The notes under the pieces are model-generated. The model saw only the letters and a list, made by a program, of their open reading frames with translations, did not search any database and was not told the DNA's origin. Of a stretch of DNA of 64,000 bases, positions 9,709 to 58,106 are shown piece after piece; the first letter of the stretch is position 1, and every line of letters starts with the position of its first letter. The position numbers and the translations under genes are program-made. The stretch is from an uncultured archaeon (lineage in GTDB: Archaea; Iainarchaeota; Iainarchaeia; Iainarchaeales; GCA-2688035). Where the stretch lies: the NCBI GenBank assembly GCA_964354805.1, contig CAYHBD010000030.1, positions 6,800 through 70,799 of the forward strand. The letters run 5' to 3'.

Positions 9709-10668
9709 TCAGCTTCTTGCAATTGAGGCGATTTCTTCAAGGCTTTGCGCTTTCTCAAACAGGCGCATTTTTTCTGGGTTCGATGCAAAAAACCTGACTG
9801 CCTGTGTCTTCATCCTGCCCAAATAAGCGCTGATGCCGAACTTTTTGCACAATTCAAGGTATTGCAGGAAAGCCTGCTCCCTGGACAGGAGGTTTGCGCC
9901 ATCAGGCGCGCTTTTCCCAAGGCTTTTTTCCAGCGGGAAAAAAGGCTTGTTGCCCAGAATTTCCGCAAAAATTCCGGGATTGCCTATTGCCGCACTGCCA
10001 ACCATTGCAGCATCACAGCCGGTCTTTTCAAGCATTCGCTCAAAGCTAGGCTTGTTGATTACACCGCCATTCCCTATTACAGGAATGCCAACAGCTTTCT
10101 TGACGCGCTTTATTGCCACAAAGTCAACCAGGCCCCTGTTTTCCTGCTTAATGGTTCGCCCATGCACAGCAATTGCCGAAGCGCCCGCTCTTTCAATCTG
10201 CTTTGCCAGCTTGATTGTGCGCAAAACATTAGGGTCAGACCTTATTTTTGCAGTAACAGGCTTTCCAAGGACATGCCAGCAGGAAATGATTTCGCAAATT
10301 CGCGCAGGCCTCCTCAAAAGCGCGACGCCTGCCCCCTGGTTAAGCACATTACCCGAAGGGCATCCCAGGTTCAAATCCAAAAAATCGAATTCCTTTTCAG
10401 CAATAAGCAGTTCAACCGCCTTTTTCATGCTTTCAACCCTTGCCCCAAAAACCTGCATTGCCAAAGGCCTGTCCTCACCGCAGGTCTGGGCAAGCCTTTT
10501 GACAGAAAGATTGTTCCTTATAAGGGCCTCAGAATTAATCATTTCCGAATAGCACAAGGAAGCGCCCTGCTCCCTGGCCAAAAGCCTGAAGGCAAGGTCA
10601 GTAACCCTGTACATTGGCGCCAAAACAAGCCTGTTTTCCATTTTTGTGCCGGCAATGCTGAAATCCAT
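9709..10668 (-). CDS. dus: tRNA-dihydrouridine synthase (Dus family)
   Basis: LAPMYRVTDLAFR, DLNLGCP and AVHGRT motifs. The start is set at MDFSIAG. The track ORF extends to 10764. Confidence 0.8.
   Translation of the reverse strand: MDFSIAGTKMENRLVLAPMYRVTDLAFRLLAREQGASLCYSEMINSEALIRNNLSVKRLAQTCGEDRPLAMQVFGARVESMKKAVELLIAEKEFDFLDLNLGCPSGNVLNQGAGVALLRRPARICEIISCWHVLGKPVTAKIRSDPNVLRTIKLAKQIERAGASAIAVHGRTIKQENRGLVDFVAIKRVKKAVGIPVIGNGGVINKPSFERMLEKTGCDAAMVGSAAIGNPGIFAEILGNKPFFPLEKSLGKSAPDGANLLSREQAFLQYLELCKKFGISAYLGRMKTQAVRFFASNPEKMRLFEKAQSLEEIASIARS
9908..9949. repeat. Hairpin-repeat family copy inside the Dus coding region, in frame
   Basis: GCGCTTTTCCCAAGGCTTTTTTCCAGCGGGAAAAAAGGCTTG. A 9-bp stem CTTTTTTCC/GGAAAAAAG. 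The core is near-identical to copies at 52784-52815 and 58038-58070. It encodes NKPFFPLEKSLGKS. Confidence 0.75.
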
Positions 10669-10831
10669 TACAAAAACAATACAGAAAAAGACTATATTCC
10701 AATGCCCTAATGCACAGGCTTTTGCCGGAAAGCAGTGAAAAACAAAGGCAAAACCCCAAGCCATCTTCGCTCAGCTTTTAATAAAAGCCGGCAAAAACAG
10801 CCTCGCTTTGCTCGGCGAGCTCGATGGAATA

Positions 10832-10946
10832 AGCCCCGGGAGGGATTTGAACCCTCGACCCCCGGCTATCTCGAATTTTTCTTTTCGCACGCCTTTTTCT
10901 AAAAGGCTTTTACGAGGTCGGTGCTCTACCACTGAGCTACCAGGGC
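10832..10946 (-). tRNA. tRNA-Thr (anticodon CGU) with a 43-nt canonical 37/38 intron
   Basis: Manual cloverleaf: acceptor GCCCTGG/CCGGGGC, D arm GCTC-AGTGGTA-GAGC, anticodon loop CTCGTAA after splicing, T arm GAGGG-TTCAAAT-CCCTC. BHB motif: central helix CTCG/CGAG flanked by 3-nt bulges TAA and ATA. Confidence 0.85.
10868..10910 (-). other. tRNA-Thr intron, made of hairpin-repeat family sequence
   Basis: Sense sequence AAAGCCTTTTAGAAAAAGGCGTGCGAAAAGAAAAATTCGAGAT, with a 7-bp hairpin GCCTTTT/AAAAGGC followed by GCGAAAAG. Confidence 0.8.
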
Positions 10947-12004: not shown

Positions 12005-12517
12005 TTGAACCAGAGCGGACAGGCTTATAGTGTCTTCAAGTTGCTGATTGCCGCAATCATTGCAGTAGCAATCCTTTACATACTTATTTCAATAATCGGC
12101 GGAATCAATATTTTCGGCAGCGATGTTCAAACCGTTGCAAAGCAAATCATTCAAAAGCAGGTTGACATGCCTGGCCAGCTGGACACAAGCACAGCAGCCG
12201 TTTTCAAAGCAGGAACAAACCTGGCGCCAAGCGCACTGGTTGGAAACAGCGGCCTGACCCCAGACCAGATTTGCCTGTATAAGGGTGACCTGGTTGACAA
12301 CCAAGCAGTGGAAGTTACAGGTAGCACACTAATGCAAAACGGGACAACTGATTTAACAGTGAAAATAAGCGTCATGTGCCACAAGGCAAACGCTTTAGTG
12401 GATGCCCTTGAAGAAGTAGGATTGCCGATTGATTTTGGCGACACAACCACCGGAACTTGTGGATGCAACCTTGATACGCCCCAGAAATGCTGCGTGGTAA
12501 TGCTGAGATTTGCTTAA
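12005..12517 (+). CDS. Type IV pilin-like protein (class III signal peptide)
   Basis: N-terminus MNQSGQAYSVFKLLIAAIIAVAILYILISIIGG: a short charged leader, a G|Q site, then a hydrophobic helix. SD AGGTGA lies upstream of the TTG start. Confidence 0.55.
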   Translation: MNQSGQAYSVFKLLIAAIIAVAILYILISIIGGINIFGSDVQTVAKQIIQKQVDMPGQLDTSTAAVFKAGTNLAPSALVGNSGLTPDQICLYKGDLVDNQAVEVTGSTLMQNGTTDLTVKISVMCHKANALVDALEEVGLPIDFGDTTTGTCGCNLDTPQKCCVVMLRFA

Positions 12518-12556
12518 GCCCTTCTTTTTCTTTCTTTTTTTTCATTTTTGCTGTTA

Positions 12557-12582
12557 TTGGCTTATCCAAGCTTGTAAGCCAA
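12557..12582 (+). terminator. Candidate hairpin after the first pilin gene
   Basis: TTGGCTTA-N10-TAAGCCAA, a perfect 8-bp inverted repeat followed by an AT/T-rich tract. Confidence 0.3.
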
Positions 12583-12748
12583 TTAAATTTTCCTGCAATT
12601 TCTTAACTTTGAATACAAAACAATTAGTTTCAATTTACATTCAAAAAAATCGCATTAATAATTTCAATTTTTCAATTAAATGCCATTTAAGCGAAAACCC
12701 GCCTATCCAAAAAAATTAAATATAGCTTTTACCACAATTATTCTTATT

Positions 12749-12922
12749 ATGTTGGCAGTTGTTAAACGGGCGCTCGGCGAGAGGAGGGCTCAGAGTGAGT
12801 GGAGCAGCGTTTACATGCTGATTGTTTTAATTATCGCTGCCCTTCTTTTGATTGCGGTAATAAAGCCGATGTTCAAGCAAAGCCAGAGCATTGTGCAGAA
12901 AACACAGCCGAAAGCAAGTTAA
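12749..12922 (+). CDS. Small pilin-like protein (class III signal peptide)
   Basis: MLAVVKRALGERRAQSEWSSVYMLIVLIIAALLLIAVI: a basic leader, an A|Q site and a hydrophobic helix. The track ORF starts at 12680. Confidence 0.4.
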   Translation: MLAVVKRALGERRAQSEWSSVYMLIVLIIAALLLIAVIKPMFKQSQSIVQKTQPKAS

Positions 12923-13039
12923 AGAGCCCGAGGAAAAGGAATCCTTGGGAAAAAAAATTAAAAGGTGCAACTAAAATGCCGAACACAACACTGGCAAAGA
13001 GTGCCCAGGACCCAAAATGAATAATAAAGGTGCAAAGAA

Positions 13040-13861
13040 ATGCTGAACAGAAAAGGCCTTGCGAAGCAATTTTCCCAAAGCTTTTTTTCCGAAGGAAAAA
13101 AAGGCTTAGCAAAGCAATTTTTCCCAGGGGTTTTTTGCACGCGAAGCAATTTTCCCATCTTGCAAAACCCAAGGTTTTGCGAGACCTCGCAAAAGCGAAG
13201 CTTTTGCAAGGAGGCTTTTTTTGCAACGGCAAAAAAAGGCTTAAGCGAAAAAGGCCGAGCTGAAAGCCGTTTTCCCTGGGATTTTTTTGCAACAGCAAAA
13301 AAAGGCCAGGAGAGCGCGCCATTTGAGCTGCTGGTTGCTGTAATAATAATGGGCTTTGTCATATTCATTGGAACAAGTGTAATGCAGCAGGTAAATTGCG
13401 AGAAATGCAAGGGCGAAACCAATGCAAAGCTGGATCGAATGGCAACCGCGTTACAGAATGCTGACGAATCAGGCAGTATTCAACCAAACGTAAGTTTTTT
13501 TTTAAGCGGCTGCTTCAACCAACAGGAAGAAAAAATCTGGATTGAGGACGAAGACGATCCCCAAGTGTGTGCTGCCTATCATTGCGGTGAGAAGCAGTTA
13601 TGCACTTTGCTGAAATACTATGGTAATGGCTGCGGCGGGTTCAGCATCATAAAGTGCCTGGATATCACCCCTGACGCCGATTTTCCTTCCATATCAGGGG
13701 GCAGGTGCGAAGAAAGAGATGGAATGCAATTAGTGGATTTCGAGAAAAGGGAGGAGCCGATAGCAACAGGGGGCAACAAGCAGGGCAACTATTTGCTGTG
13801 GAACAAGACAGGGCAGGGCGACACTTTTTCAACAATCTGCGCTTACAGGAAAGAGGGTTGA
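13040..13861 (+). CDS. Cys-rich type IV pilin-like protein whose leader peptide carries a 249-nt repeat array
   Basis: ATG 13040 with SD AAGGTG. Removing 13059-13307 gives MLNRKGQESAPFELLVAVIIMGFVIFIG, a canonical class III signal peptide. The ORF also reads through the array without a stop. Confidence 0.6.
   Translation: MLNRKGLAKQFSQSFFSEGKKGLAKQFFPGVFCTRSNFPILQNPRFCETSQKRSFCKEAFFATAKKGLSEKGRAESRFPWDFFATAKKGQESAPFELLVAVIIMGFVIFIGTSVMQQVNCEKCKGETNAKLDRMATALQNADESGSIQPNVSFFLSGCFNQQEEKIWIEDEDDPQVCAAYHCGEKQLCTLLKYYGNGCGGFSIIKCLDITPDADFPSISGGRCEERDGMQLVDFEKREEPIATGGNKQGNYLLWNKTGQGDTFSTICAYRKEG
13059..13307. repeat. Array of hairpin-repeat family modules (249 nt) flanked by the direct repeat AAAAGGCC
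   Basis: AAAAGGCC occurs at 13051-13058 and 13300-13307. Perfect hairpins: 13081-13090/13094-13103 (10 bp), 13162-13169/13173-13180 (8 bp), 13215-13224/13229-13238 (10 bp), 13282-13290/13295-13303 (9 bp). Confidence 0.85.
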
Positions 13862-13868
13862 TTCAACC

Positions 13869-14531
13869 ATGCTTGGATTCACTTTAAGCAAACTGAATCT
13901 GCTGATTTTGGTGACAGCCTTGTTTGGGATAATTGCATTCTTTTTATTTACGCTAACAGACATGATGGTTGCCAGGTCGGCACAGCAAATGGTCAATGAC
14001 CTTGTTGAAAGAACCAGCGGCATTATGACACCGAGCGTTGACTGCTTTGAGGAAACGGTTACAATACCAGAGGAAATAACCTACTTCAGCGGAAAACGCT
14101 TCTATTACGTAATGAAGATATCAAGGGAGCCGGCTGAATACAACTCGGAATATCTAAGCAAATTGATTTTCAAGGTTGCGGCAAGAAAAGAGCAAACCAA
14201 ATTCATTGCAACAAATAGCTATGACATGAATGCAGAAATCATGCTTTACCAATGGCCTGTTGCAGAAATTAGAACTAACCTAAAAGAGCAAAGCAGCATT
14301 ATACTTGATCCAATGAACGAAACTACTGCAAGCAATTCAGTTAAGTTAATAAAAGAGGTTTATAATAGAAAAAATTTCCTGCACGTAATTGCCTGCAATA
14401 CCGACCAAGGGCAGTGTGAAATGAATGAGGGTTATGCAGGCTGCTGCGTAAAAAAATGGAGGGGCGTTGAATCAAGCTGCCTGCCGCCTGCAGAGAATTG
14501 CGAAAACTTGAGCTGCGATACAAGGGGGTAA
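13869..14531 (+). CDS. Pilin-like protein
   Basis: N-terminus MLGFTLSKLNLLILVTALFGIIAFFLF resembles a G|FTL prepilin motif followed by a hydrophobic helix. The C-terminal part is Cys-rich. Confidence 0.45.
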   Translation: MLGFTLSKLNLLILVTALFGIIAFFLFTLTDMMVARSAQQMVNDLVERTSGIMTPSVDCFEETVTIPEEITYFSGKRFYYVMKISREPAEYNSEYLSKLIFKVAARKEQTKFIATNSYDMNAEIMLYQWPVAEIRTNLKEQSSIILDPMNETTASNSVKLIKEVYNRKNFLHVIACNTDQGQCEMNEGYAGCCVKKWRGVESSCLPPAENCENLSCDTRG

Positions 14532-14536
14532 AAAAA

Positions 14537-15037
14537 ATGAAAAACGGGGGTTTTTTGGGTCCAATTGGGGATGATTTGCCGAGCCTGATTCCGCTGCTTT
14601 TTGCTTTAATGCTTTTTTTTTATGCTTTTACATCTGCTTGGAATAATTTTGACAGGAGGAATGAGGATTTTGCCGATGACCTGGCAGTGCTCAGGGCAAG
14701 CAATGCATTGAGGGGAAACAATTATATTGCGGGAATTGAAAAATTCAATGAAAACTGCGAGACAGCGAAAGGAACCCAGAGAATGCACTTTTTGGCCGGA
14801 TTGCTGCCCTTGCCTACAGGGAAAGATGAGCAATTTGTTGGAATTGATACTGAAAAAATAGTCAGCGGCGATCAAAGCTTTTTTGAAGACTTTCAATGCA
14901 GCAGCACTGAGGAAATACCCGTGCTGGAAAGCGAAAAAAGCGTTGTTAGGTTCTTTCCTGTTGCCTTGGAAACAAAAGAGGAAAACGACAAGTTTTATGT
15001 AAAGCCGATGTTGCTGGTGGTCATTGCATGGAAATAA
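14537..15037 (+). CDS. Pilin-like / membrane-anchored hypothetical protein
   Basis: MKNGGFLGPIGDDLPSLIPLLFALMLFFYAF. Start chosen at ATG 14537. The track ORF starts at 14498. Confidence 0.4.
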   Translation: MKNGGFLGPIGDDLPSLIPLLFALMLFFYAFTSAWNNFDRRNEDFADDLAVLRASNALRGNNYIAGIEKFNENCETAKGTQRMHFLAGLLPLPTGKDEQFVGIDTEKIVSGDQSFFEDFQCSSTEEIPVLESEKSVVRFFPVALETKEENDKFYVKPMLLVVIAWK

Positions 15038-15849
15038 AGCTTGGCGAAAAAGGTCCTGTTTTGCGAAGCCTATTTTCCCCAGGCTTTTGCAACAGCAAAA
15101 GGCTGTTGCGAAGCAAAACCCATTTCCCTGGGATTTTTTGCACGCGAAGCAATTTTCCCAAGGCTTTTTCACGAAGTGAAAAAGGCTTAAGCGAAAAAGG
15201 CCAGTCCAGTTTGACTGATTCCATGTTTTTCCTGGTAATAGCCAGCATTTTGAGCACTTGGCTTTTCTATTCAAGCGCAACCTACGGCCTGACAATAGAC
15301 CAGCAAATTTCAAGGCAGGGCAGGGAGGAATACACCAAGTCTGCGCTTGAAACAATTTTGTACAGCAGCGCGCCGAGGCAGGCAGGCCTTTCTTTGGAAG
15401 AAGCATCAGAGATTGACTACCTGCTTGCGGCAATAAAAGAGGACTACGCTGATGACACTGAACTGGATGAAACAAAAGCAATTCTTTTCCAGAACATAAA
15501 TGCCGTAATGCAGCCGCTTGCAACAAACAGCAACTACCTTTTCTACATATATATTGCTCAAAAAAATAAATTTGTTGTCACTTTTTTGTACGCAAGCGAA
15601 GCAAAAAACGATGACGGCTGGAGCTTAACCGGCAACAAAATTGTTTTTTCCTGCGTGCCGCCAAGCAAGCAGGCAGTGGAAGAATTCCTGCTTACGGTTG
15701 GCAGGATGTCTGTCAGCAACAGCAGAATTCAGCTGCTTGAATCAAAAGAGCCGGCTCCTGACAGATACGATGCCCTAATCACTTTAATCACTTGGATTCC
15801 AACGCCAGTTGATGAAAGCGACCTAAACTGCACTAAATTCACTGGCTGA
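15028..15849 (+). CDS. Type IV pilin-like protein whose leader peptide carries a 147-nt repeat array
   Basis: ATG 15028 with SD GGTGG. Removing 15056-15202 gives MEIKLGEKGQSSLTDSMFFLVIASILSTWLF. The ORF reads through the array in frame. Confidence 0.6.
   Translation: MEIKLGEKGPVLRSLFSPGFCNSKRLLRSKTHFPGIFCTRSNFPKAFSRSEKGLSEKGQSSLTDSMFFLVIASILSTWLFYSSATYGLTIDQQISRQGREEYTKSALETILYSSAPRQAGLSLEEASEIDYLLAAIKEDYADDTELDETKAILFQNINAVMQPLATNSNYLFYIYIAQKNKFVVTFLYASEAKNDDGWSLTGNKIVFSCVPPSKQAVEEFLLTVGRMSVSNSRIQLLESKEPAPDRYDALITLITWIPTPVDESDLNCTKFTG
15056..15202. repeat. Array of hairpin-repeat family modules (147 nt) flanked by GCGAAAAAGGTC / GCGAAAAAGGCC
   Basis: Direct repeats at 15044-15055 and 15191-15202. 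Hairpins at 15084-15090/15095-15101 and 15164-15172/15176-15184. The 27 nt at 15134-15160 are identical to 13131-13157. Confidence 0.85.
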
Positions 15850-20245: not shown

Positions 20246-20336
20246 TGCTTCCTATAGCCCTGCAGCAATTTATTATAAATTTTCCCTCACCCCATATTAT
20301 TATCCATGGACCCATAGCCTAGTGGATAGGGCAACT

Positions 20337-20370
20337 AAAGAGGTGAGTTTTTCAATTCTCTCTTTTGCAA
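20337..20370 (+). other. tRNA-Arg intron 1 (34 nt) at non-canonical position 29/30
   Basis: hBHBh' motif: outer helix AGG/CCT, central helix GCAA/TTGC, 3-nt bulges CTA and AAG, inner helix AAGAG/CTCTT. Confidence 0.75.
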
Positions 20371-20378
20371 GCCTCCTA

Positions 20379-20444
20379 AAGCCTTTTCTTTAGAAAAGAA
20401 AAGGCTTGCGAAAAGAAATTTTTCGCTCTGCAAAAAACGGGGCT
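20379..20444 (+). other. tRNA-Arg intron 2 (66 nt) at canonical position 37/38, made of hairpin-repeat modules
   Basis: Central helix CTCC/GGGG with bulges TAA and CTA. It contains a perfect 11-bp hairpin GCCTTTTCTTT/AAAGAAAAGGC and the hairpin GCGAAAA/TTTTCGC. Confidence 0.8.
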
Positions 20445-20481
20445 AGCAGTAGGTCGTGGGTTCGATTCCCACTGGGTCCGT

Positions 20482-21868: not shown

Positions 21869-22603
21869 CTAAATCCTGAGCGCGAATGTTTCCCTCTTTT
21901 TCTGTTTCCCTGTCCTGTCAACTCCAATCAGCTTGAATGTTTTCGTTGCATCTGTTTTGAATTCTTTTTCCAGCTGCTTTACAGCCAAGGCAGCTGCTTT
22001 TTTTGATCCGACTATTGCATCGATTGAGTTTTTTTTCTGTGTTGCGGAAACAATTGCGGCCAGACCGTCTCTTTTTTGCAGGGATGCGAGCAATTGCCTC
22101 AGCCTGTTGAAAGCAGCAGCTGCTTTTTCCCCCCTAAGCTGCACTATTGCCTCAAAGTAATTGCTTTTCAGCTTCATGCAAGCATCGCACTGCATTGCGG
22201 GAAAAGAGATTGTTGTTTTCCTTTCAACCAGAACAGGCGTGTTTTCAATTACGCCCTTTGCCGTTACGATTGCCTGCATTTCCTTTTCACTCAACCGCTG
22301 CAATTCAACTGACAGGGCAGCATCTGTCAGCTCCTTAACCTTGCATTTTTTTTTGACGAACTGCTTCAATAGTTCCAAGTCAAAAGCGTGCATTTTCCCT
22401 GAAAGCAAAATTTTTCCGCATTGCTTGCAGCGCTGCAACTCGATTTTTTCAGGCAACTGCAGAAGCGTGTGCTCTTTCAGGAAGCACTGGAGGCAGCTGC
22501 CCCTTACAAAAAGGCTGTCTGTTGCACCGCAGCTCGGGCAAAATAATCTGCCCAAAGCCTTTTTGCCTTTTGGCAAAAAGCCTTGGGAAAAGTTGCTTCG
22601 CAT
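21869..22603 (-). CDS. NMD3-family protein (archaeal homolog of the ribosome export adaptor)
   Basis: N-terminal double zinc motif FCPSCG...CLQCF...CKQCGK. Start set at ATG 22603, 4 nt after the upstream stop. The track ORF extends to 22645. Confidence 0.7.
   Translation of the reverse strand: MRSNFSQGFLPKGKKALGRLFCPSCGATDSLFVRGSCLQCFLKEHTLLQLPEKIELQRCKQCGKILLSGKMHAFDLELLKQFVKKKCKVKELTDAALSVELQRLSEKEMQAIVTAKGVIENTPVLVERKTTISFPAMQCDACMKLKSNYFEAIVQLRGEKAAAAFNRLRQLLASLQKRDGLAAIVSATQKKNSIDAIVGSKKAAALAVKQLEKEFKTDATKTFKLIGVDRTGKQKKRETFALRI
22551..22601. repeat. Hairpin-repeat family copy forming the first 16 or so codons of the NMD3-like gene
   Basis: Gene-sense sequence GCGAAGCAACTTTTCCCAAGGCTTTTTGCCAAAAGGCAAAAAGGCTTTGGG, with a 9-bp hairpin CTTTTTGCC/GGCAAAAAG. 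It encodes RSNFSQGFLPKGKKALG, similar to the peptides encoded by the pilin arrays. Confidence 0.75.
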
Positions 22604-32901: not shown

Positions 32902-33615
32902 TTGCCAGCTGAGGCCGTGATTAGGGCTGAGAATGTTTCAAAAGCTTACCAGATGGGCACTATTCAGGTAAAGGCACTGGACAATGTCAGCCTGGGCATT
33001 AAAAAAGGCGAATTCATTGCAATAATGGGGCCAAGCGGCAGCGGGAAGACAACTTTGCTTGATGTTTTGAGCGCTTTGCTGAGGCCAAGCAGCGGTGAAG
33101 TGTTCATCAATGGCAGGCCGATAAGCGAGATGGACGACAACCAGCTCGCTGTTGTAAGGGGCAGAACAATCGGATTTGTTTTCCAGACATTCAATCTGAT
33201 AGCGAGAATGACTGCTTTGGAAAATGTCATGCTGCCTTTGTGGTTCCTGGGAAAAAGCCCGGAGGAAAGAAAAGCTGCTGCAGAGAAAATTTTGACAGAT
33301 GTTGGCATGGCTGAAAGGATGCAGCACAGGCCGAACGAGCTGAGCGGAGGCCAGAGGCAGAAGGTTGCGATCGCAAGGGCGCTTGCAGTAAACCCTGATG
33401 TGATTGTTGCCGATGAGCCTACCGGAAACCTTGACAGCGCAAGCGGCGAGCAAATCCTGAACATAATAAAGGAATTGCACGAGAAAAAAGGGAAAACAGT
33501 TCTGATGGTAACGCATGAAAGATACGTTGCGGAGAAGGCTGAAAAAATCCTGCATTTGCGGGATGGCATGATTGTTAAAAAGGAAGAAATAACCAAAAAA
33601 AGGAGAGGTGGTTGA
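32902..33615 (+). CDS. ABC transporter ATP-binding protein (MacB/LolD-like)
   Basis: Walker A GPSGSGKTT, signature LSGGQRQ and Walker B VIVADEPT. Confidence 0.9.
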   Translation: MPAEAVIRAENVSKAYQMGTIQVKALDNVSLGIKKGEFIAIMGPSGSGKTTLLDVLSALLRPSSGEVFINGRPISEMDDNQLAVVRGRTIGFVFQTFNLIARMTALENVMLPLWFLGKSPEERKAAAEKILTDVGMAERMQHRPNELSGGQRQKVAIARALAVNPDVIVADEPTGNLDSASGEQILNIIKELHEKKGKTVLMVTHERYVAEKAEKILHLRDGMIVKKEEITKKRRGG

Positions 33616-34940: not shown

Positions 34941-36173
34941 ATGCTTTCCTTTCTTAAAGGTGGTTGGTTGATTGATTCAGAACTGCTGGATGTGGCATTC
35001 AAAAACCTCAAAGCGCGAAAGCTGCGCAGCTATCTCACCCTGCTTGGCATAGTTATCGGGATTGCAGCAATTGTAGCGCTTGTTTCATTGGGCGAAGGAC
35101 TGAACCAGGCAGTAACCCAGCAGTTCGAGCAGCTCGGCCTGAACACCCTTGTTGTAGAGCCAGGCAGCGGCAGCTTTGTTTCAACGGCCGTTGCAAGAAC
35201 CTTAAAGGAAGATGACGAAAGGCTGATTGAGGGCATTGCAGGCGTTGAGGCAGTAGTCGGATTTTATGAAACAGCAGCTGTTGCCGAATTCAAGAACGGG
35301 AAAAGCAGCGTATTCATAATCGGCTTTGACCCCAAAAAAATGCCTTACCTCGAAAAAATGGGTTACAGCGAGTTAACTAAAGGGAGAAAATTGCAGCCAA
35401 GCGACAAATATGCTGTCATGCTGACAGAGGGCTTTGCGGCAAACGGCTTTGTCGACGAAACATTGAGGGTAAAAGACAGCCTTGAAATAAACGGCCAGAA
35501 ATTCAAAATCGTCGGCATAACAAAAGACATGGGCGGCTTCATGGGCGGAGGCATAATGTCAAATTTCCTCTTCATGCCAAAGAAAACAGTGCAGGACTTT
35601 TTTTCCGGAAGCAATCCGACAGAATTGATTGTAGAGTTAACAGACAAGTCAATGGCTGACGAGGTTGCGGAAAAAATAAAGACAAAGCTGCTGCGGGCGC
35701 ATGGGGAAGAAGATTTTTATGTCATGACAATGGAGAACATAATGGAAAGCGCGGGCGTTGTGCTGGGATTAATTCAGCTTGTGCTTGTCGGCCTTGCGGC
35801 AATCTCACTGCTTGTTGGAGGCATTGGAATAATGAACACAATGCTGATGTCAGTAATGGAAAGGACAACAGAGATTGGCACAATGAAGGCAATCGGCGCA
35901 ACAAACAGCAGGGTTTTGTCAATATTTCTGGCTGAGGCAGCACTGCTCGGATTCACAGGCGGCCTGGTTGGCTCTGTCTTCGGCATTATGATTGCAGCAG
36001 GCGTTTCGGTTGTTGCAACAGCAACCGGCTTTCCCCTGCCTGTTGTCGTTAATCCGCTTGCATTTGTTGTGGCAATTGCCTTTGCAATGGCTGTCGGAAT
36101 GATTTCAGGGTACTATCCCGCAAGGCGAGCGGCATTGCTCGAACCTGTTGCAGCACTGAGGTACGCCGAATAA
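34941..36173 (+). CDS. ABC transporter permease (FtsX/MacB family)
   Basis: N-terminal AFKNLKARKLRSYLTLLGIVIGIAAIVA and C-terminal FtsX-domain GGIGIMNTMLMSVMERTTEIGTMKAIGA. Confidence 0.85.
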   Translation: MLSFLKGGWLIDSELLDVAFKNLKARKLRSYLTLLGIVIGIAAIVALVSLGEGLNQAVTQQFEQLGLNTLVVEPGSGSFVSTAVARTLKEDDERLIEGIAGVEAVVGFYETAAVAEFKNGKSSVFIIGFDPKKMPYLEKMGYSELTKGRKLQPSDKYAVMLTEGFAANGFVDETLRVKDSLEINGQKFKIVGITKDMGGFMGGGIMSNFLFMPKKTVQDFFSGSNPTELIVELTDKSMADEVAEKIKTKLLRAHGEEDFYVMTMENIMESAGVVLGLIQLVLVGLAAISLLVGGIGIMNTMLMSVMERTTEIGTMKAIGATNSRVLSIFLAEAALLGFTGGLVGSVFGIMIAAGVSVVATATGFPLPVVVNPLAFVVAIAFAMAVGMISGYYPARRAALLEPVAALRYAE

Positions 36174-36362: not shown

Positions 36363-37562
36363 TTGGCTTTGGTTGATTTTGAATTGTTTCAGGTTGCGTT
36401 CAAAAACCTGAGGAGCAGGCGGTTGCGCAGCTTTCTCACTATTCTTGGGGTAGTTATCGGGATTGCGGCAATTGTTGCGCTTATTTCCATAGGCGAGAGC
36501 CTGAACCAATCTGTAACCAAGCAGTTCGAGCAGCTCGGCACAAGGACTTTGACTGTTACGCCAGGCGGCGGCCTTGCCGAAAGCACTTTGGCGAAACTGC
36601 AGACCGAAGACGTTGACACAATTGAAAAAGTGAAAGGGGTTGATTTTGCAACAGAGCTGTACATTGTATCAAGGCAGGTGGTTTTCAAGGGGGAAAAAAA
36701 GAGTGCTGTGATAATCGGCATTGACCCGGAAAAAATAGACGAACTCGGCATGATTGGAATGGTTGAAATCGGTTCAGGAAGGCAGCTTTCAAAAAATGAC
36801 ACCACTGCCATAATCGTCGGAGAAAACTTCGGCGAAAAAATCCTCAAACAGGACCTGCGCCTGAAAGAGAGCCTTGAAATGGACAGCACAAAGCTGAAGG
36901 TTGTCGGAATACTGAAAGGCGCAAAGCAGAGCCTTGCAGCAATGTTCAACACCGCCATTGCAATGAACAGCGAGGAATTAAAAAAATTGAGCACTGAAGA
37001 AATAACCCCATTCAGGATAATCGTGAATGTTTTGCCGGGCGAGGATGTGGAAGAAGTAAAGCAGCGCATAGCAGACAGGCTGGAGAAAAAGCACGGGAAA
37101 AAGGATTTCCAGGTTATGGCAATGCAGCAGATTGCCGACATTGCAGGGAGCGTTATTGGATTGATTAGCCTTGTGTTGATTGGAATTGCGGCAATCTCGC
37201 TGCTTGTAGGAGGCATTGGAATAATGAACACAATGCTGATGTCAGTAATGGAAAGGACAAGGGAAGTTGGAGTGATGAAAGCGATTGGCGCAACAACAAA
37301 CAGGATCATTGCAATCTTTGTTGTAGAAGCAGGAATGATTGGCCTGGCCGGCGGAATAATCGGATTGCTGGTCGGCGCTGGAATTGCAGCCGTTGTTTCA
37401 TTAGTAGCTGACGCTGCAGGCCTGCCCCTTGCAACAGCAGTAACACCCACACTGGTTATCGGGGCGCTTGCATTCAGCATGGCAATCGGGATGATTGCAG
37501 GCGTTTACCCGGCAAAAAGGGCGGCAAGCATAGACCCAGTGGAGGCGCTGAGATATGAATAA
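36363..37562 (+). CDS. ABC transporter permease (FtsX/MacB family), second copy
   Basis: Paralog of the 34941 ORF. It has AFKNLRSRRLRSFLTILGVVIGIAAIVA and GGIGIMNTMLMSVMERTREVGVMKAIGA. Confidence 0.85.
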   Translation: MALVDFELFQVAFKNLRSRRLRSFLTILGVVIGIAAIVALISIGESLNQSVTKQFEQLGTRTLTVTPGGGLAESTLAKLQTEDVDTIEKVKGVDFATELYIVSRQVVFKGEKKSAVIIGIDPEKIDELGMIGMVEIGSGRQLSKNDTTAIIVGENFGEKILKQDLRLKESLEMDSTKLKVVGILKGAKQSLAAMFNTAIAMNSEELKKLSTEEITPFRIIVNVLPGEDVEEVKQRIADRLEKKHGKKDFQVMAMQQIADIAGSVIGLISLVLIGIAAISLLVGGIGIMNTMLMSVMERTREVGVMKAIGATTNRIIAIFVVEAGMIGLAGGIIGLLVGAGIAAVVSLVADAAGLPLATAVTPTLVIGALAFSMAIGMIAGVYPAKRAASIDPVEALRYE

Positions 37563-39343: not shown

Positions 39344-40270
39344 TTAGATGGCATTGTGGCTTACGATGGGAAGGAAACTGTATTGCTCCCGCAGGTCTTC
39401 GTAATCTTCTGGCACCAGCCCAAACTCGATATTTCTCTTTATCTGCATGGGCATTTTTCTTCCGTAAATCCAAGAACGATAAGTTTCCCAGACAATATTC
39501 AAATCTCTAGCAGCCGCTCTCAGGCTTTTTCGGCAATTTAAATTATATCTTAAAGCGCCCAAATACTGCTGTTTATCGTATGACTTGCATTTCTTGAGAT
39601 ATTCCACTGCCTCTGCCAACTTTTTACTTTTGTAGCCAATTGAAAAACCAACAAGCTCTTGATATTTTTCAAGATTTTCCAGAAGAGAGATTATCAGCTT
39701 GTCTGAACCGAATTTTTTTCTCAGCACTTTACTTTGGATGCCAATGTCCCAAAGCAGCCGTTTAATTTTCTCCAATAAGGCAGTGTCTGCTTGGGTTATT
39801 ACAATTTGTCTTCGATTATAGATAACATCCACACTTCCTTCTGAATCAGAAAATCCACGAATAAATCGCGCTTTTATGTTTTTATCTCCCTTAAGAACAA
39901 ACTCTGGAATTTGCGCGTTGTTTTTTGTAAGCTTAGCCAATCGTTTTGCCAGGAGAGTGCTATAAGCATAGCAATTGTAATAGTATTTATCATCTACCGG
40001 CGCATCTATACCATAAGTCTTCTTAATCAAAGCTGCAAAATGAAGGCAAAAGTCTAATTCCTTAACACGCAATCTAATATAGCCCCTGTCATTCCTTAGG
40101 TGACCATCACCCAACATTATGCCAACTATCTCCGCTTCATCCAAAAGCTCTTCATAAGTCTGCGGAACCTCTATTTCTTTTAGATTTTTGGATTTCAAAC
40201 AGAACCCCTTACAACAGTATTCACTTTTTATTATTAAAGCCCTTTGAAAGAGCGGGGTTCCGGTGGTCAT
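39344..40270 (-). CDS. Free-standing LAGLIDADG-family endonuclease-like protein with a C-terminal HTH-like region
   Basis: Two LAGLIDADG-type motifs, IVGIMLGDGHL and FIRGFSDSEGSV. It is not embedded in an intron or an intein host. Confidence 0.7.
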   Translation of the reverse strand: MTTGTPLFQRALIIKSEYCCKGFCLKSKNLKEIEVPQTYEELLDEAEIVGIMLGDGHLRNDRGYIRLRVKELDFCLHFAALIKKTYGIDAPVDDKYYYNCYAYSTLLAKRLAKLTKNNAQIPEFVLKGDKNIKARFIRGFSDSEGSVDVIYNRRQIVITQADTALLEKIKRLLWDIGIQSKVLRKKFGSDKLIISLLENLEKYQELVGFSIGYKSKKLAEAVEYLKKCKSYDKQQYLGALRYNLNCRKSLRAAARDLNIVWETYRSWIYGRKMPMQIKRNIEFGLVPEDYEDLREQYSFLPIVSHNAI

Positions 40271-48171: not shown

Positions 48172-48519
48172 CTATTCCTCCAAAATGCTTTTTGACAAAA
48201 TAATCGAATTAACTATGCTGTTAACGCTTGCCCTCAGTGCGGTTGCATCTGATGCATTAATACCTATTTGCACTGCATTGTTTTTAATTTTAACATGTGT
48301 TGCGCTTCTCTTAGCATGCACTGCATTTAATTCTGGACCAATTGCTTTCAAAAAAATGCCTGCTTCTTTTTTCGGCACAGCAATGCTGATGCTCAAATCA
48401 AAGCCTTTTTTGCTTAAGCCTTTTGCTTCGCAAAACCCTTGGGAAATTTGCTTCGCCTGCAAAAAACCCTTGGGAAAAGGGTTTTGCTTACGCAAAACAT
48501 ATTCCGGTGAATGCTGCAA
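48172..48519 (-). CDS. pcc1: KEOPS subunit Pcc1-like protein with repeat-derived N-terminal codons
   Basis: The C-terminal two thirds, FDLSISIAVPKKEAGIFLKAIGPEL...IGINASDATALRASVNSIVNSIIL, match the Pcc1/CTAG pattern. TTG start 48519 with SD GAGGT 8 nt upstream. Confidence 0.65.
   Translation of the reverse strand: MQHSPEYVLRKQNPFPKGFLQAKQISQGFCEAKGLSKKGFDLSISIAVPKKEAGIFLKAIGPELNAVHAKRSATHVKIKNNAVQIGINASDATALRASVNSIVNSIILSKSILEE
48412..48497. repeat. Hairpin-repeat family copy in the 5' end of the Pcc1-like gene
   Basis: Gene-sense sequence TTTTGCGTAAGCAAAACCCTTTTCCCAAGGGTTTTTTGCAGGCGAAGCAAATTTCCCAAGGGTTTTGCGAAGCAAAAGGCTTAAGC, followed by AAAAAAGGC. Confidence 0.8.
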
Positions 48520-48525
48520 GCGCGA

Positions 48526-48666
48526 TTACCTCGCTTTGATGTTTTTTGCAATCGGTTCCCTGACTTTGTACATTATTTTGTAAGCGCAGACTGGGCAGCG
48601 CAGGATTCCTTCAGGCAGGGCGTTGATTACTTCACCGCATTTAGCGCATTTGTAAGGCATTCTCAT
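48526..48666 (-). CDS. rpoP: DNA-directed RNA polymerase subunit P (Rpo12)
   Basis: MRMPYKCAKCGEVINALPEGILRCPVCAYKIMYKVR is the zinc-ribbon pattern of RpoP. The track ORF's 5' extension overlaps the L37Ae tail. Confidence 0.8.
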   Translation of the reverse strand: MRMPYKCAKCGEVINALPEGILRCPVCAYKIMYKVREPIAKNIKAR

Positions 48667-48682
48667 TACCTCCCAAAAAAAA

Positions 48683-49333
48683 TTATTTTTTCTTTCGCTC
48701 TTCTTTCTTTTCTTTTGCTTTCTCTTTTCCTTTTGTTTCCTTTTCAATTCTCTTTTCTTTTCGTTCTCTTGGCGCAATTTTTTCTTTTCTTTCTTTGCCG
48801 ATTTCTTTTTCTTCGTGTTCCCCTAATTGCTTTTCCTCACTGCCGATTTGTTTTTCTTCTGGCTTGCGCTCTTTCCATTCTATTGTTTCTTTTCCTTGTC
48901 CGAAAAAGTCCCTTCTTCCTTTTCCTCGCTCTCTCCATTCCCTTCTTTCCCTGTAGATTTCCCTGCTTGCTCTTCCGCCCCATTCCCTTTTTCCCTCTGC
49001 CCCGCTTTCATCGCCTGCCTCTTCTTCTGCCCAGTCTTCTTTTGTGCTTAGCAGTTCTTTCATTGAAGGCAAAAAGCTTCTCTGGGCAACCATTTTTTGC
49101 ACAATCGAGCCAGGCAAAGTGGTGGGCAAATACGCGCCTCCTGCGAATGTGTTATCGCATTTCCTGCAGCTATAGATGCCTGGCGCTTTTCTCCTCACTC
49201 TCTCGGCTCCGCAGAACGGGCATGGGTAGTATTTGTGCTGCTTGCTTTCAATTTTAAGCAGGCTTTTTCTTATGCCAACGCCGTATCTTGCCCCATAGCG
49301 CCCAGCGGTTTTAACTTTTAAAGTGTTGCCCAT
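48683..49333 (-). CDS. rpl37ae: Ribosomal protein L37Ae (eL43) with a K/E/R-rich C-terminal extension of about 130 aa
   Basis: The N-terminal 85 or so aa, TAGRYGARYGVGIRK...YPCPFCGAERVRRKAPGIYSCRKCDNTFAGGAY, are the canonical eL43 zinc ribbon. The rest is a charged low-complexity tail. Confidence 0.85.
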   Translation of the reverse strand: MGNTLKVKTAGRYGARYGVGIRKSLLKIESKQHKYYPCPFCGAERVRRKAPGIYSCRKCDNTFAGGAYLPTTLPGSIVQKMVAQRSFLPSMKELLSTKEDWAEEEAGDESGAEGKREWGGRASREIYRERREWRERGKGRRDFFGQGKETIEWKERKPEEKQIGSEEKQLGEHEEKEIGKERKEKIAPRERKEKRIEKETKGKEKAKEKKEERKKK

Positions 49334-52689: not shown

Positions 52690-52830
52690 TTTGAAAAAAT
52701 CAATGCTTGCAAAGCAATTGCCCTTTCCCCCATAATGCCAAGCTAAAGAATTATTTGTTTTTGTTCCATTGCTTGGCATTATGCCAAGGCTTTTTTCCCG
52801 CAGGAAAAAAGGCTTATCCAAAGAAAATTG
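52690..52830. repeat. Composite palindromic element in the psmA-SBDS spacer, including a hairpin-repeat family core
   Basis: Hairpin at about 52701-52720. A perfect 13-bp stem CATAATGCCAAGC (52731-52743) / GCTTGGCATTATG (52771-52783). Family core CCAAGGCTTTTTTCCCGCAGGAAAAAAGGCTT (52784-52815). Confidence 0.7.
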
Positions 52831-57985: not shown

Positions 57986-58106
57986 TGGGCCCGACCGGGA
58001 TCGAACCGGCGACCTCCACCATGTTGAAGACCTTTTTCCCAAGGCTTTTTTCCGCAGGAAAAAAGGCTTTGTCGAGGTGGCGTCATAACCGCTAGACCAC
58101 GAGCCC
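57986..58106 (-). tRNA. Intron-containing tRNA, probably tRNA-Val (GAC). The anticodon loop assignment is uncertain.
   Basis: Acceptor GGGCTCG/CGGGCCC, anticodon stem CCACC/GGTGG, variable loop AGGTC, T arm GCCGG-TTCGATC-CCGGT. The loop 5' part is TCGACA, followed by a 48-nt insert. The best model gives loop TCGACAT, with C at position 33. Confidence 0.65.
58022..58069 (-). other. Intron of the tRNA-Val-like gene, made of a hairpin-repeat family core
   Basis: The plus strand reads CCTTTTTCCCAAGGCTTTTTTCCGCAGGAAAAAAGGCTTT. The core is near-identical to 9917-9948 and 52784-52815. Confidence 0.7.

Follow-up and report, generated by a model that had tools for sequence, protein, structure and literature searches.

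Rickettsia palindromic elements (RPEs) are selfish elements, short palindromes present in many copies, that lie in frame in unrelated coding genes, where they are translated, and that also occur in non-coding genes (PMC10969869). The class III leader of a prepilin is a cytoplasmic sequence that is removed after Gly−1 on the cytoplasmic face by a dedicated peptidase, and documented prepilin leaders are 6–26 residues long (PMC4471445). The locus described here brings the two together. It lies in a 64,000-nt stretch of contig CAYHBD010000030.1 from an uncultured archaeon (the whole stretch is termed the window, and all plain coordinates refer to positions within it), in which the leader-coding part of a type IV pilin-like gene contains a 249-nt array of hairpin modules. 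This array is probably a translated, peptidase-removed pile-up of RPE-like selfish palindromic modules at the Lys-Gly (KG) of a class III leader. The gene, termed gene 1 (open reading frame (ORF) 13040–13861), belongs to a pilin-like cluster together with gene 2 (15028–15849) and gene 3 (14537–15037), all on the + strand. Herein, L-numbers denote loci of the relatives compared and P-numbers denote homologous proteins retrieved.

The modules are similar to RPEs in being in-frame and apparently translated palindromes, and one of their sites, in the gene of a tRNA-dihydrouridine synthase (Dus), exists as empty, filled, and nested alleles. However, they measure 41–54 nt as opposed to ~150 bp and are thus about three times shorter, they stack head-to-tail and nest, and their host is a DPANN archaeon. 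RPEs encode a conserved peptide, whereas the modules encode none and use all frames and both orientations. In addition, the modules concentrate at N termini, in class III leaders, and in tRNA introns, and they show no sequence kinship to RPE families. Repetitive extragenic palindromic (REP) sequences, bacterial interspersed mosaic elements (BIMEs), and repeats resembling miniature inverted-repeat transposable elements (e.g., the terminator-like SPRITE) share with them the form of dispersed and arrayed imperfect palindromes of 20–50 nt, which are terminator-like with T-runs, and the likeness extends to site-specific insertion with no clear long target duplication. By definition, REPs lie outside genes, but over half of the loci described here are intragenic and in frame; moreover, no RAYT/IS200-type transposase is seen in the window, and the arrays run head-to-tail instead of alternating in orientation. 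Palindromic amphipathic repeat coding elements (PARCELs) are likewise tandem intragenic repeats with DNA dyad symmetry and variable copy number that occur in membrane-targeted proteins and are thought to be mobile (PMC2996958). They encode a conserved amphipathic motif of 25 residues, detectable by hidden Markov model, and form the protein body, whereas the modules show no protein conservation and lie in a presumably discarded leader.

Two further comparisons concern the places in which the modules are found. The ancestral sequence of the pilin-like gene, M-x-x-[KR]-G/Q-E-S-A-P-F-E-L-L followed by a hydrophobic helix (the slash marks the cleavage point here and below), matches the class III signal peptide motif, but the leaders here have 33–98 residues, as opposed to the documented 6–26, and are repeat-built and strain-variable. 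Mobile or expanding archaeal tRNA introns (PMC4090602, PMC3239211) offer a parallel in that the introns here vary between strains (43 versus 114 nt) and their sequence is repeated elsewhere in the genome. The repeat unit here is, however, not intron-specific, and its coding copies lack a bulge–helix–bulge (BHB) motif. The literature searched contained no description of such elements in Diapherotrites/Iainarchaeum, no archaeal counterpart of RPEs, and no repeat-built class III leaders. To judge from sequence, the modules act like RPEs but belong to no RPE, REP/BIME, or PARCEL family.

A preliminary description of the locus had placed the 249-nt array exactly at the KG cleavage motif of the leader, and the sequence is exactly as it claimed: AAGGTG precedes ATG 13040, the gene starts with MLNRKG, and both copies of the direct repeat that bounds the array, AAAAGGCC, are found (left copy 13051–13058, right copy 13300–13307). 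The ORF of 273 aa is open from MLNRKG and resumes after the array with CAG GAG AGC (QESAPFELL). In silico deletion of 13059–13307 yields ATGCTGAACAGAAAAGGCCAGGAGAGC, translating as MLNRKGQESAPFELLVAVII. The array is a multiple of 3 nt with no stop in the gene frame, and ATG, GTG, and TTG are all absent from its last 20 codons, again as described; its sole in-frame TTG lies at ~13160, 50 codons before the Gln. The RNA of the array folds with a minimum free energy of −112.7 kcal/mol (z = −5.3 against shuffles), and its core motifs occur in the window ~10-fold over dinucleotide shuffles (6 matches with 0.66 expected and 15 with 1.13 expected).

The comparison with orthologs supports the reading of the block as an insertion. 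A protein search retrieved 67 homologs of gene 1, those named being from Candidatus Diapherotrites or "archaeon," and most of them comprise 180–186 aa with the N terminus M-x-x-[KR]-G-Q-E-[SA]-A-P-F-E-L-L. Most orthologs read MLNRKGQESAPFELL, and the distant P0011 and P0012 carry exactly the short leader that deletion of the array had been predicted to restore. Measured from the shared conserved Shine–Dalgarno (SD) sequence and ATGCTGAACAGAAAAGGCC to the Gln codon, the ATG-to-Gln distance is 18 nt in L007 and L008 (MLNRKAQESAPF), which represent the empty site with an array of 0 nt. It rises to 99 nt in L003, L004, L005, and L006 (array of 81 nt), 114 nt in L002 (96 nt), 267 nt in the window (249 nt), and 294 nt in L001 (276 nt). 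Array-free alleles and length variants thus share one junction. Because the identical 81-nt allele is found in L003, L004, and L005, which are three independent assemblies, the arrays are no assembly artifact. The synonymous divergence (dS) of the mature part is 0.13–0.23 among array-bearing loci, whereas array length and module order differ completely; therefore, the arrays turn over much faster than the gene. The mature parts are intact ORFs of 182–184 codons with conserved cysteines and a ratio of nonsynonymous to synonymous divergence (dN/dS) of 0.25–0.8, which is not above that of comparisons with array-free alleles; these values are too noisy to separate array-bearing from array-free alleles and show gene intactness. 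By both measures, the genes are not decaying, and a pseudogene reading is disfavored.

Arrays recur in neighboring genes. Gene 1 is one of six consecutive small genes (12005–15849), each of which has an N terminus composed of Gly plus a hydrophobic stretch. Gene 2 carries the second array of the window, where its distant orthologs read MAPRLGEKGQASLTDSMFF or MALNGKGQASLTD, and the same junction holds 16, 32, 45, 49, or 51 module codons (48, 96, 135, 147, or 153 nt) in the window and close relatives. Arrays of gene 3 are found at the same post-Gly junction, with 51 nt (17 codons) in L003 and 108 nt (36 codons) in L001. Hence, in one strain or another, three pilin-like genes of one cluster carry arrays at the [K/R]G junction. 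In all 12 distinct alleles (five of gene 1, five of gene 2, and two of gene 3), the array length is divisible by 3, and the frame that begins at the ancestral ATG runs through without a stop. This constraint is not built into the modules, since intergenic type A cores measure 42, 44, and 46 nt, the tRNA-Thr intron changes by 71 nt, and a duplication upstream of gene 1 comprises 65 nt. The long leader of about 89 aa that had been proposed for the case of translation thereby gains indirect support: every allele is in frame from a conserved ATG and SD, and no usable later start exists.

With the array, the leader in the window would have 89 residues, a net charge of +12, and a Phe-rich composition; across relatives, it would have 33–98 aa and thus fall outside the range known for prepilins (PMC4471445). 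The predicted leaders are all strongly cationic, with net charges of +6 to +19, and such basic leaders fit the cytoplasmic n-region and positive-inside topology of class III signal peptides (PMC4471445). Just 5′ of gene 1, at 12958–13022 (+), lies a 65-nt partial duplication of its start region (TTAAAAGGTGCAACTAAA ATGCCGAACAC...), which is also present in L001 and L002 and absent in L003–L008. It creates an upstream ORF of 14 codons, MPNTTLAKSAQDPK*, directly before the real SD and ATG, and the duplication resembles a remnant of what was once the 5′ end of the gene.

Two types of module, defined by self-comparison and by a sequence profile, make up the array. Type A is ~41–48 nt long, extends from GCGAAGCAATTTTCCCAAGGCTTTTTT to AAAAAAGGC, and has the layout GCGAAGCAATTTTCCCAAGGC-T(5–7)-hairpin-A(5–7)GGC(TT). 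Type B is a 54-nt twin hairpin that nests within type A at CCCA^AGGC (the caret marks the point of insertion), with the termini CCTGCAAAA/TTTTGCAAGG, the ends TCCTGCAAAA...TTTTGCAAGG, and no evident duplication at that site. At the identical junction and in the same relative orientation, type B is also found inside type A in Dus of L042/L043 and in gene 3 of L001. Nested insertion has occurred independently in these three cases, each time at a site that agrees to the dinucleotide, which speaks for genuine site-specific transposition. A type A profile, built from 12 copies and used in an nhmmer search of the window, gave 14 matches at eight loci. Those with E < 1e-4 start at 9905 (Dus), at 13060, 13196, and 13263 (array of gene 1, with further partial copies at 13109 and 13140), at 15062 and 15143 (array of gene 2), at 22602 (NMD3), at 48456 (Pcc1, with a further partial copy at 48487, E = 1.9e-4), at 52778 (intergenic), and at 58026 (tRNA-Val intron). 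Between them, the copies of type A use each of the three forward frames (AKQFSQGF, RSNFPKAF, and EAIFPRLF) as well as the reverse orientation (KPFFPLEKSLGK); hence, the modules show no conservation at the protein level. With the translated array as query, phmmer found no family among 1.84 billion representative proteins, and its single match, P0216, was rejected as an unrelated tandem-repeat ORF. The possibility, raised in the preliminary description, that the long leader is ancient conserved protein sequence is thereby ruled out. A CRISPR array or an ordinary tandem repeat is ruled out by the irregular spacing of the modules (48, 32, 86, and 66 nt), the nested structure, and the interleaved sequence, which is itself repeat-derived. 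In Rfam 15, only tRNAs reach the threshold in the window; a permissive search of 12900–15300 gave microRNA and RNAI matches of chance level (E ≥ 0.29), the microRNA-like ones being rejected as random hairpin similarity.

Outside the pilin-like cluster, a module lies inside Dus (Pfam Dus, 4e-58). Its insertion, of net +51 nt, is absent in the 94%-identical ortholog L041 and is enlarged in L042 by the nested 54-nt type B. Conserved C-terminal sequence continues in frame after the module, and by this ortholog alignment the modules are translated in Dus. In L039, a module is located at the N terminus of a PUA-methyltransferase. The family also occurs in four Candidatus Iainarchaeum metagenome-assembled genome (MAG) loci and in further metagenome contigs. 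An 18-mer scan of genome contigs gave 32 matches, of which 28 are chance matches in bacteria and the four Iainarchaeum loci are informative.

Three of the four tRNA genes of the window have introns that are filled with type A modules or related hairpins. The tRNA-Thr gene of L042 (2028–2213) and of L043 (1883–2068) has an intron of 114 nt, which is 71 nt longer than the 43-nt intron of the window and L002. The extra sequence in L042/L043 consists of more A/T-run hairpins, and the anticodon stem differs as well (CCGAC as opposed to GAGTT). The gene of tRNA-Arg(CCU) has two introns: the first, of 34 nt, is at position 29/30 (20337–20370) with a perfect BHB motif (GCAA cu/a ... UUGC aa/g), and the second, which holds the related hairpin, is at position 37/38. 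Neither Rfam, at the gathering threshold, nor ARAGORN, in its default setting, detects this gene. With its intron option, ARAGORN proposes a tRNA-Glu with a long variable arm at 20307–20481, which was rejected in favor of the two-intron tRNA-Arg(CCU). In L029, from another Iainarchaeum MAG, the first 160 nt on the reverse strand contain a tRNA 3′ half (T-arm GGGTTCAAATCCCGG) after ~110 nt of type A-like hairpins; this stretch is probably a very long module-filled intron, and ARAGORN misses the gene.

At the junction, the Lys-Gly codons AAAGGC(C) repeat the 3′ end of type A letter for letter. On the metagenome contig Ga0315296_10205225 (L046, 39–100), a family-2 glycosyltransferase (GT2) gene reads MKKG[LAKQFSQGFFSEGKKG]FVSIIIP, with a 48-nt type A module (16 aa) that is flanked by AAAAAAGGCTT and is inserted near the start of this cytoplasmic enzyme, at codons 2–4. 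Because this gene shows a AAAAAAGGCTT-flanked insertion, the AAAGGC motif attracts or stabilizes insertions even at sites that are no peptidase target. The position exactly at KG, although confirmed, thus appears to be at least partly sequence-driven. The flanking direct repeats are AAAAGGCC for gene 1, GCGAAAAAGG for gene 2, and AAAAAAGGCTT for the GT2 gene; since each of them is also what the module carries at its 3′ end, target duplication is indistinguishable from target mimicry. AAAAGGC occurs 61 times on both strands of the window as opposed to ~8 expected from base composition, with 42 copies outside recognizable modules, and the extra copies may be decayed module ends or reflect a general compositional bias. 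Other occupied places are N termini (NMD3, Pcc1, and the PUA-methyltransferase of L039), the Dus linker, tRNA introns, and spacers. Tolerance must also matter, as these seem to be places where added sequence is harmless or removed. The suggestion that the leader is a safe harbor for selfish DNA accordingly stands in part: the family is dispersed and polymorphic and occupies tRNA introns and three pilin-like leaders, but it also persists in the products of Dus, NMD3, Pcc1, and the GT2 gene, which keep the modules, so the leader is a tolerated site and not the sole one.

The assignment of gene 1 to the pilin-like proteins rests on its signal peptide. After removal of the array, MLNRKG/QESAPFELLVAVIIMGFVIFIG agrees with the class III motif, as it comprises a short positive leader that ends with Gly and is followed by a hydrophobic stretch. 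The 67 homologs share this motif and have invariant Q5, E6, P9, F10, E11, L12, and L13. The AlphaFold2 model of the mature protein (predicted local distance difference test score of 90.4) consists of a 51-residue N-terminal helix (residues 9–59) followed by a seven-stranded β-head. A Foldseek search of this model against the PDB gave nothing significant (best E of 0.57, with pseudopilins only at E ≥ 2), and Pfam has no match for the protein.

In the proposed explanation, small palindromic non-coding mobile modules, endemic to the Iainarchaeum/Diapherotrites lineage, would land in the leader-coding part of the type IV pilin-like signal peptide at the AAAGGC Lys-Gly codons. Because each module ends in the AAAGGC motif, each new copy would recreate the target and the KG motif, so that the array could grow head-to-tail to the 249-nt block. 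It would be transcribed and translated from the ancestral ATG, giving a basic, Phe-rich leader of 89 residues on the cytoplasmic side, and the prepilin peptidase would cut after the last KG and leave the mature pilin unchanged. A bolder version holds that the modules are specialized in discarded sequence (tRNA introns and class III leaders), that their self-targeted head-to-tail insertion builds hypervariable, Lys/Phe-rich pilin leaders of 30–100 residues, and that the host has co-opted the arrays, by way of RNA structure or leader length, for strain-specific adjustment of pilin expression or export; we regard it as rather doubtful.

Several points weigh against a translated and cleaved array. 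The sequences directly show the insertion, its modular composition, its polymorphism, the nesting, and the conservation of frame, whereas the mechanism of transposition, translation through the array, and cleavage are inferred, the latter two from frame conservation and cleavage also from the established biology of the family. An open frame is partly compositional, as several other frames, two reverse ones across the array among them, are open too. For at least eight independent length changes, the probability that the frame would be kept by chance, were length free to vary, does not exceed (1/3)^8, ~1.5e-4, but this is only a rough bound since the array alleles are not phylogenetically independent. 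Leaders of 89–98 residues are far beyond the 6–26 residues documented for prepilins (PMC4471445). The insertion motif alone does not determine insertion because AAAAGGC occurs 42 times outside modules. A Pfam scan of 40 window ORFs for prepilin peptidase, pilus ATPase, and transposase domains found no A24 prepilin peptidase, no assembly ATPase, and no transposase domain; the processing and mobilizing enzymes are, therefore, assumed to be encoded elsewhere in the genome. Finally, the sense strand of the array contains four T6–T7 runs, which are potential archaeal termination signals. As an objection to read-through, termination at T-runs was rejected, as T6–T9 runs are common in sense-strand coding sequences here and a T9 run lies inside the mature pilin.

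Three other accounts of the array have to be weighed. The same T-runs, together with the very stable RNA structure (z = −5.3), could make the array a domesticated regulator, in which hairpins and T-runs attenuate transcription or throttle translation, or the long leader controls export or assembly, with length variation tuning expression. Such a role would fit the recurrence of arrays at one junction in three genes of a single pilus cluster, their persistence in strains separated by a dS of 0.13–0.23, and the resemblance of the intergenic copies to bidirectional terminator hairpins. It is nevertheless unlikely given that array turnover is much faster than that of the flanking coding sequence, that neither a peptide nor the order of modules is conserved, and that phmmer finds no family for the translated array; moreover, arrays are dispensable in some close relatives (they are missing from L007 and L008, and gene 3 lacks one in L002 as in the window), and the modules are shared with introns and with unrelated genes. 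Alternatively, the array might inactivate or truncate the gene, so that either no pilin is made or an internal start (TTG at ~13160, or an ATG in the array of L002) gives a shorter, still unusual leader. Such a start was indeed picked by the gene caller for P0002 in L002, an in-frame TTG is available at ~13160, and the hairpins could stand in the way of ribosomes initiating at 13040. Yet the frame is open from the ancestral ATG in all alleles with ATG and SD retained, the internal starts differ between alleles, and the mature parts are intact with dN/dS below 1, all of which makes this account very unlikely. Internal initiation would in any case leave the essential finding standing, because the leader would still contain 20–50 residues of module sequence.

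The least probable account, to which we give only a slight chance, is that the array is removed from the RNA as one or more BHB introns by the tRNA splicing endonuclease, the mRNA then encoding the short leader. The intron of tRNA-Val is of the same module type, those of tRNA-Thr and tRNA-Arg hold related hairpins, and the endonucleases of ARMAN-type DPANN archaea are reported to have a broad substrate specificity (PMC3239211); cutting at equivalent points of the bounding direct repeat would restore the frame. A BHB scan of every boundary-spanning pair of 5′ and 3′ splice sites was made for both window arrays, and herein the real introns of tRNA-Thr, tRNA-Val, and tRNA-Arg were recovered as controls. 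Neither array gave a candidate that exceeds the random-site null. The best candidate in gene 1 scores 16/16 with G-U pairs, but it leaves 29 nt plus 20 nt of the array, and the same score is reached at 4 of 300 random sites; the best score in gene 2 is 14. An intron could have any length, yet the length of each of the 12 alleles is divisible by 3, and the Dus insertion, which is also without a BHB motif, must be read through. The coordinates of the modules and of the genes that carry them are collected in Table 1.

Table 1. Features of the pilin-like genes and module copies in the window
Feature	Position	Strand	Remarks
Type A in frame inside the Dus gene (9709–10764, −)	9886..9949	−	+17 residues (FFPLEKSLGKSAPDGANL region); nhmmer E = 2.7e-13
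43-nt intron of tRNA-Thr(CGU) (gene 10832–10946), GCCTTTT/AAAAGGC hairpin	10868..10910	−	
SD-like AAGGTG	13027..13032	+	7 nt 5′ of ATG 13040; context AAAGGTG(C/T)AA...ATG kept in L001–L008
Ancestral start and short leader codons ATG CTG AAC AGA AAA GGC (C) = MLNRKG	13040..13058	+	(Near-)identical in every array-bearing and array-free relative
249-nt (83-codon) in-frame array of hairpin modules	13059..13307	+	
Type A, full copy	13060..13108	+	nhmmer E = 8.5e-15
Type A, 5′ half only	13109..13136	+	nhmmer E = 0.0043, profile positions 3–29
Type A split by nested element	13140..13242; host halves 13140–13157, 13212–13242	+	Two partial nhmmer matches
Type B (TCTTGCAAAACC..GGTTTTGCGAG / CTCGCAAAAGC..GCTTTTGCAAGG)	13158..13211	+	Nested at CCCA^AGGC of type A host
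Type A, last copy of array	13263..13307	+	Its AAAAAAGGC end remakes Lys-Gly codons before Gln; nhmmer E = 7.6e-10
Mature pilin-like coding region QESAPFELLVAVIIMGFVIFIG..., 184 codons and stop	13307..13861	+	Homology, AlphaFold2 model, intact ORFs
Gene 3 (MKNGG/FLGPIGDDLPSLIP; FLGPIGDD)	14537..15037	+	Array-free in window and L002
Second array, 147 nt (49 codons), in gene 2 between MEIKLGEKG and QSSLTDSMFFLVIASIL	15054..15200	+	Flanked by GCGAAAAAGG (15044–15053, 15191–15200)
66-nt second intron of two-intron tRNA-Arg(CCU) gene (20309–20481), related hairpin	20379..20444	+	Hand reconstruction; nhmmer weak, E = 0.13
Type A right after ATG (22603) of NMD3 gene, before FCPSCG zinc motif	22553..22602	−	E = 4.1e-14
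Two-module array between ATG (48519) and Pcc1 domain (gene 48172–48519)	48400..48493	−	Pfam Pcc1 match starts only at residue 42
Intergenic type A, between proteasome alpha-like ORF and next downstream ORF	52778..52816	+	E = 5.2e-11
48-nt intron of tRNA-Val(GAC) (57986–58106), largely one type A module	58023..58070	−	E = 4.6e-13

The window contains further features apart from the modules. A ribosomal protein L37Ae-like ORF at 48683–49333 (−) has a long, extremely Lys/Glu-rich C-terminal extension and overlaps a small zinc-ribbon ORF at 48526–48777 (−, RpoP-like); many CT-rich low-complexity repeats (families D1, D5, and D6) also stem from the region 48526–49333. A free-standing ORF of 308 aa at 39344–40270 (−) has a LAGLIDADG_3 homing-endonuclease-like domain (Pfam 2.7e-14) and is not obviously located in an intron or intein. 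Tandem paralogous permeases of the MacB/FtsX type are encoded at 34941–36173 and 36363–37562 (+), after an ABC ATPase (32902–33615) and a CARDB-domain protein. These paralogs have a 149-nt stretch in common at 78% identity, as well as similar upstream regions (D3 and D7).

The arrays have consequences for annotation, as in DPANN MAGs they cause mis-called starts (P0002), inflated N termini, and missed tRNA genes (tRNA-Arg). The in-frame colonization of genes by palindromic selfish DNA, which is best documented in Rickettsia (PMC10969869), is met here in an ultrasmall DPANN archaeon. Stacking and nesting, the three pilin cleavage junctions, and the tRNA introns together offer a concrete and testable example of "safe-harbor" selection on mobile DNA. 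Should the precursors undergo processing, the substrate range of the prepilin peptidase would extend to leaders of ~100 residues, three to four times longer than described.

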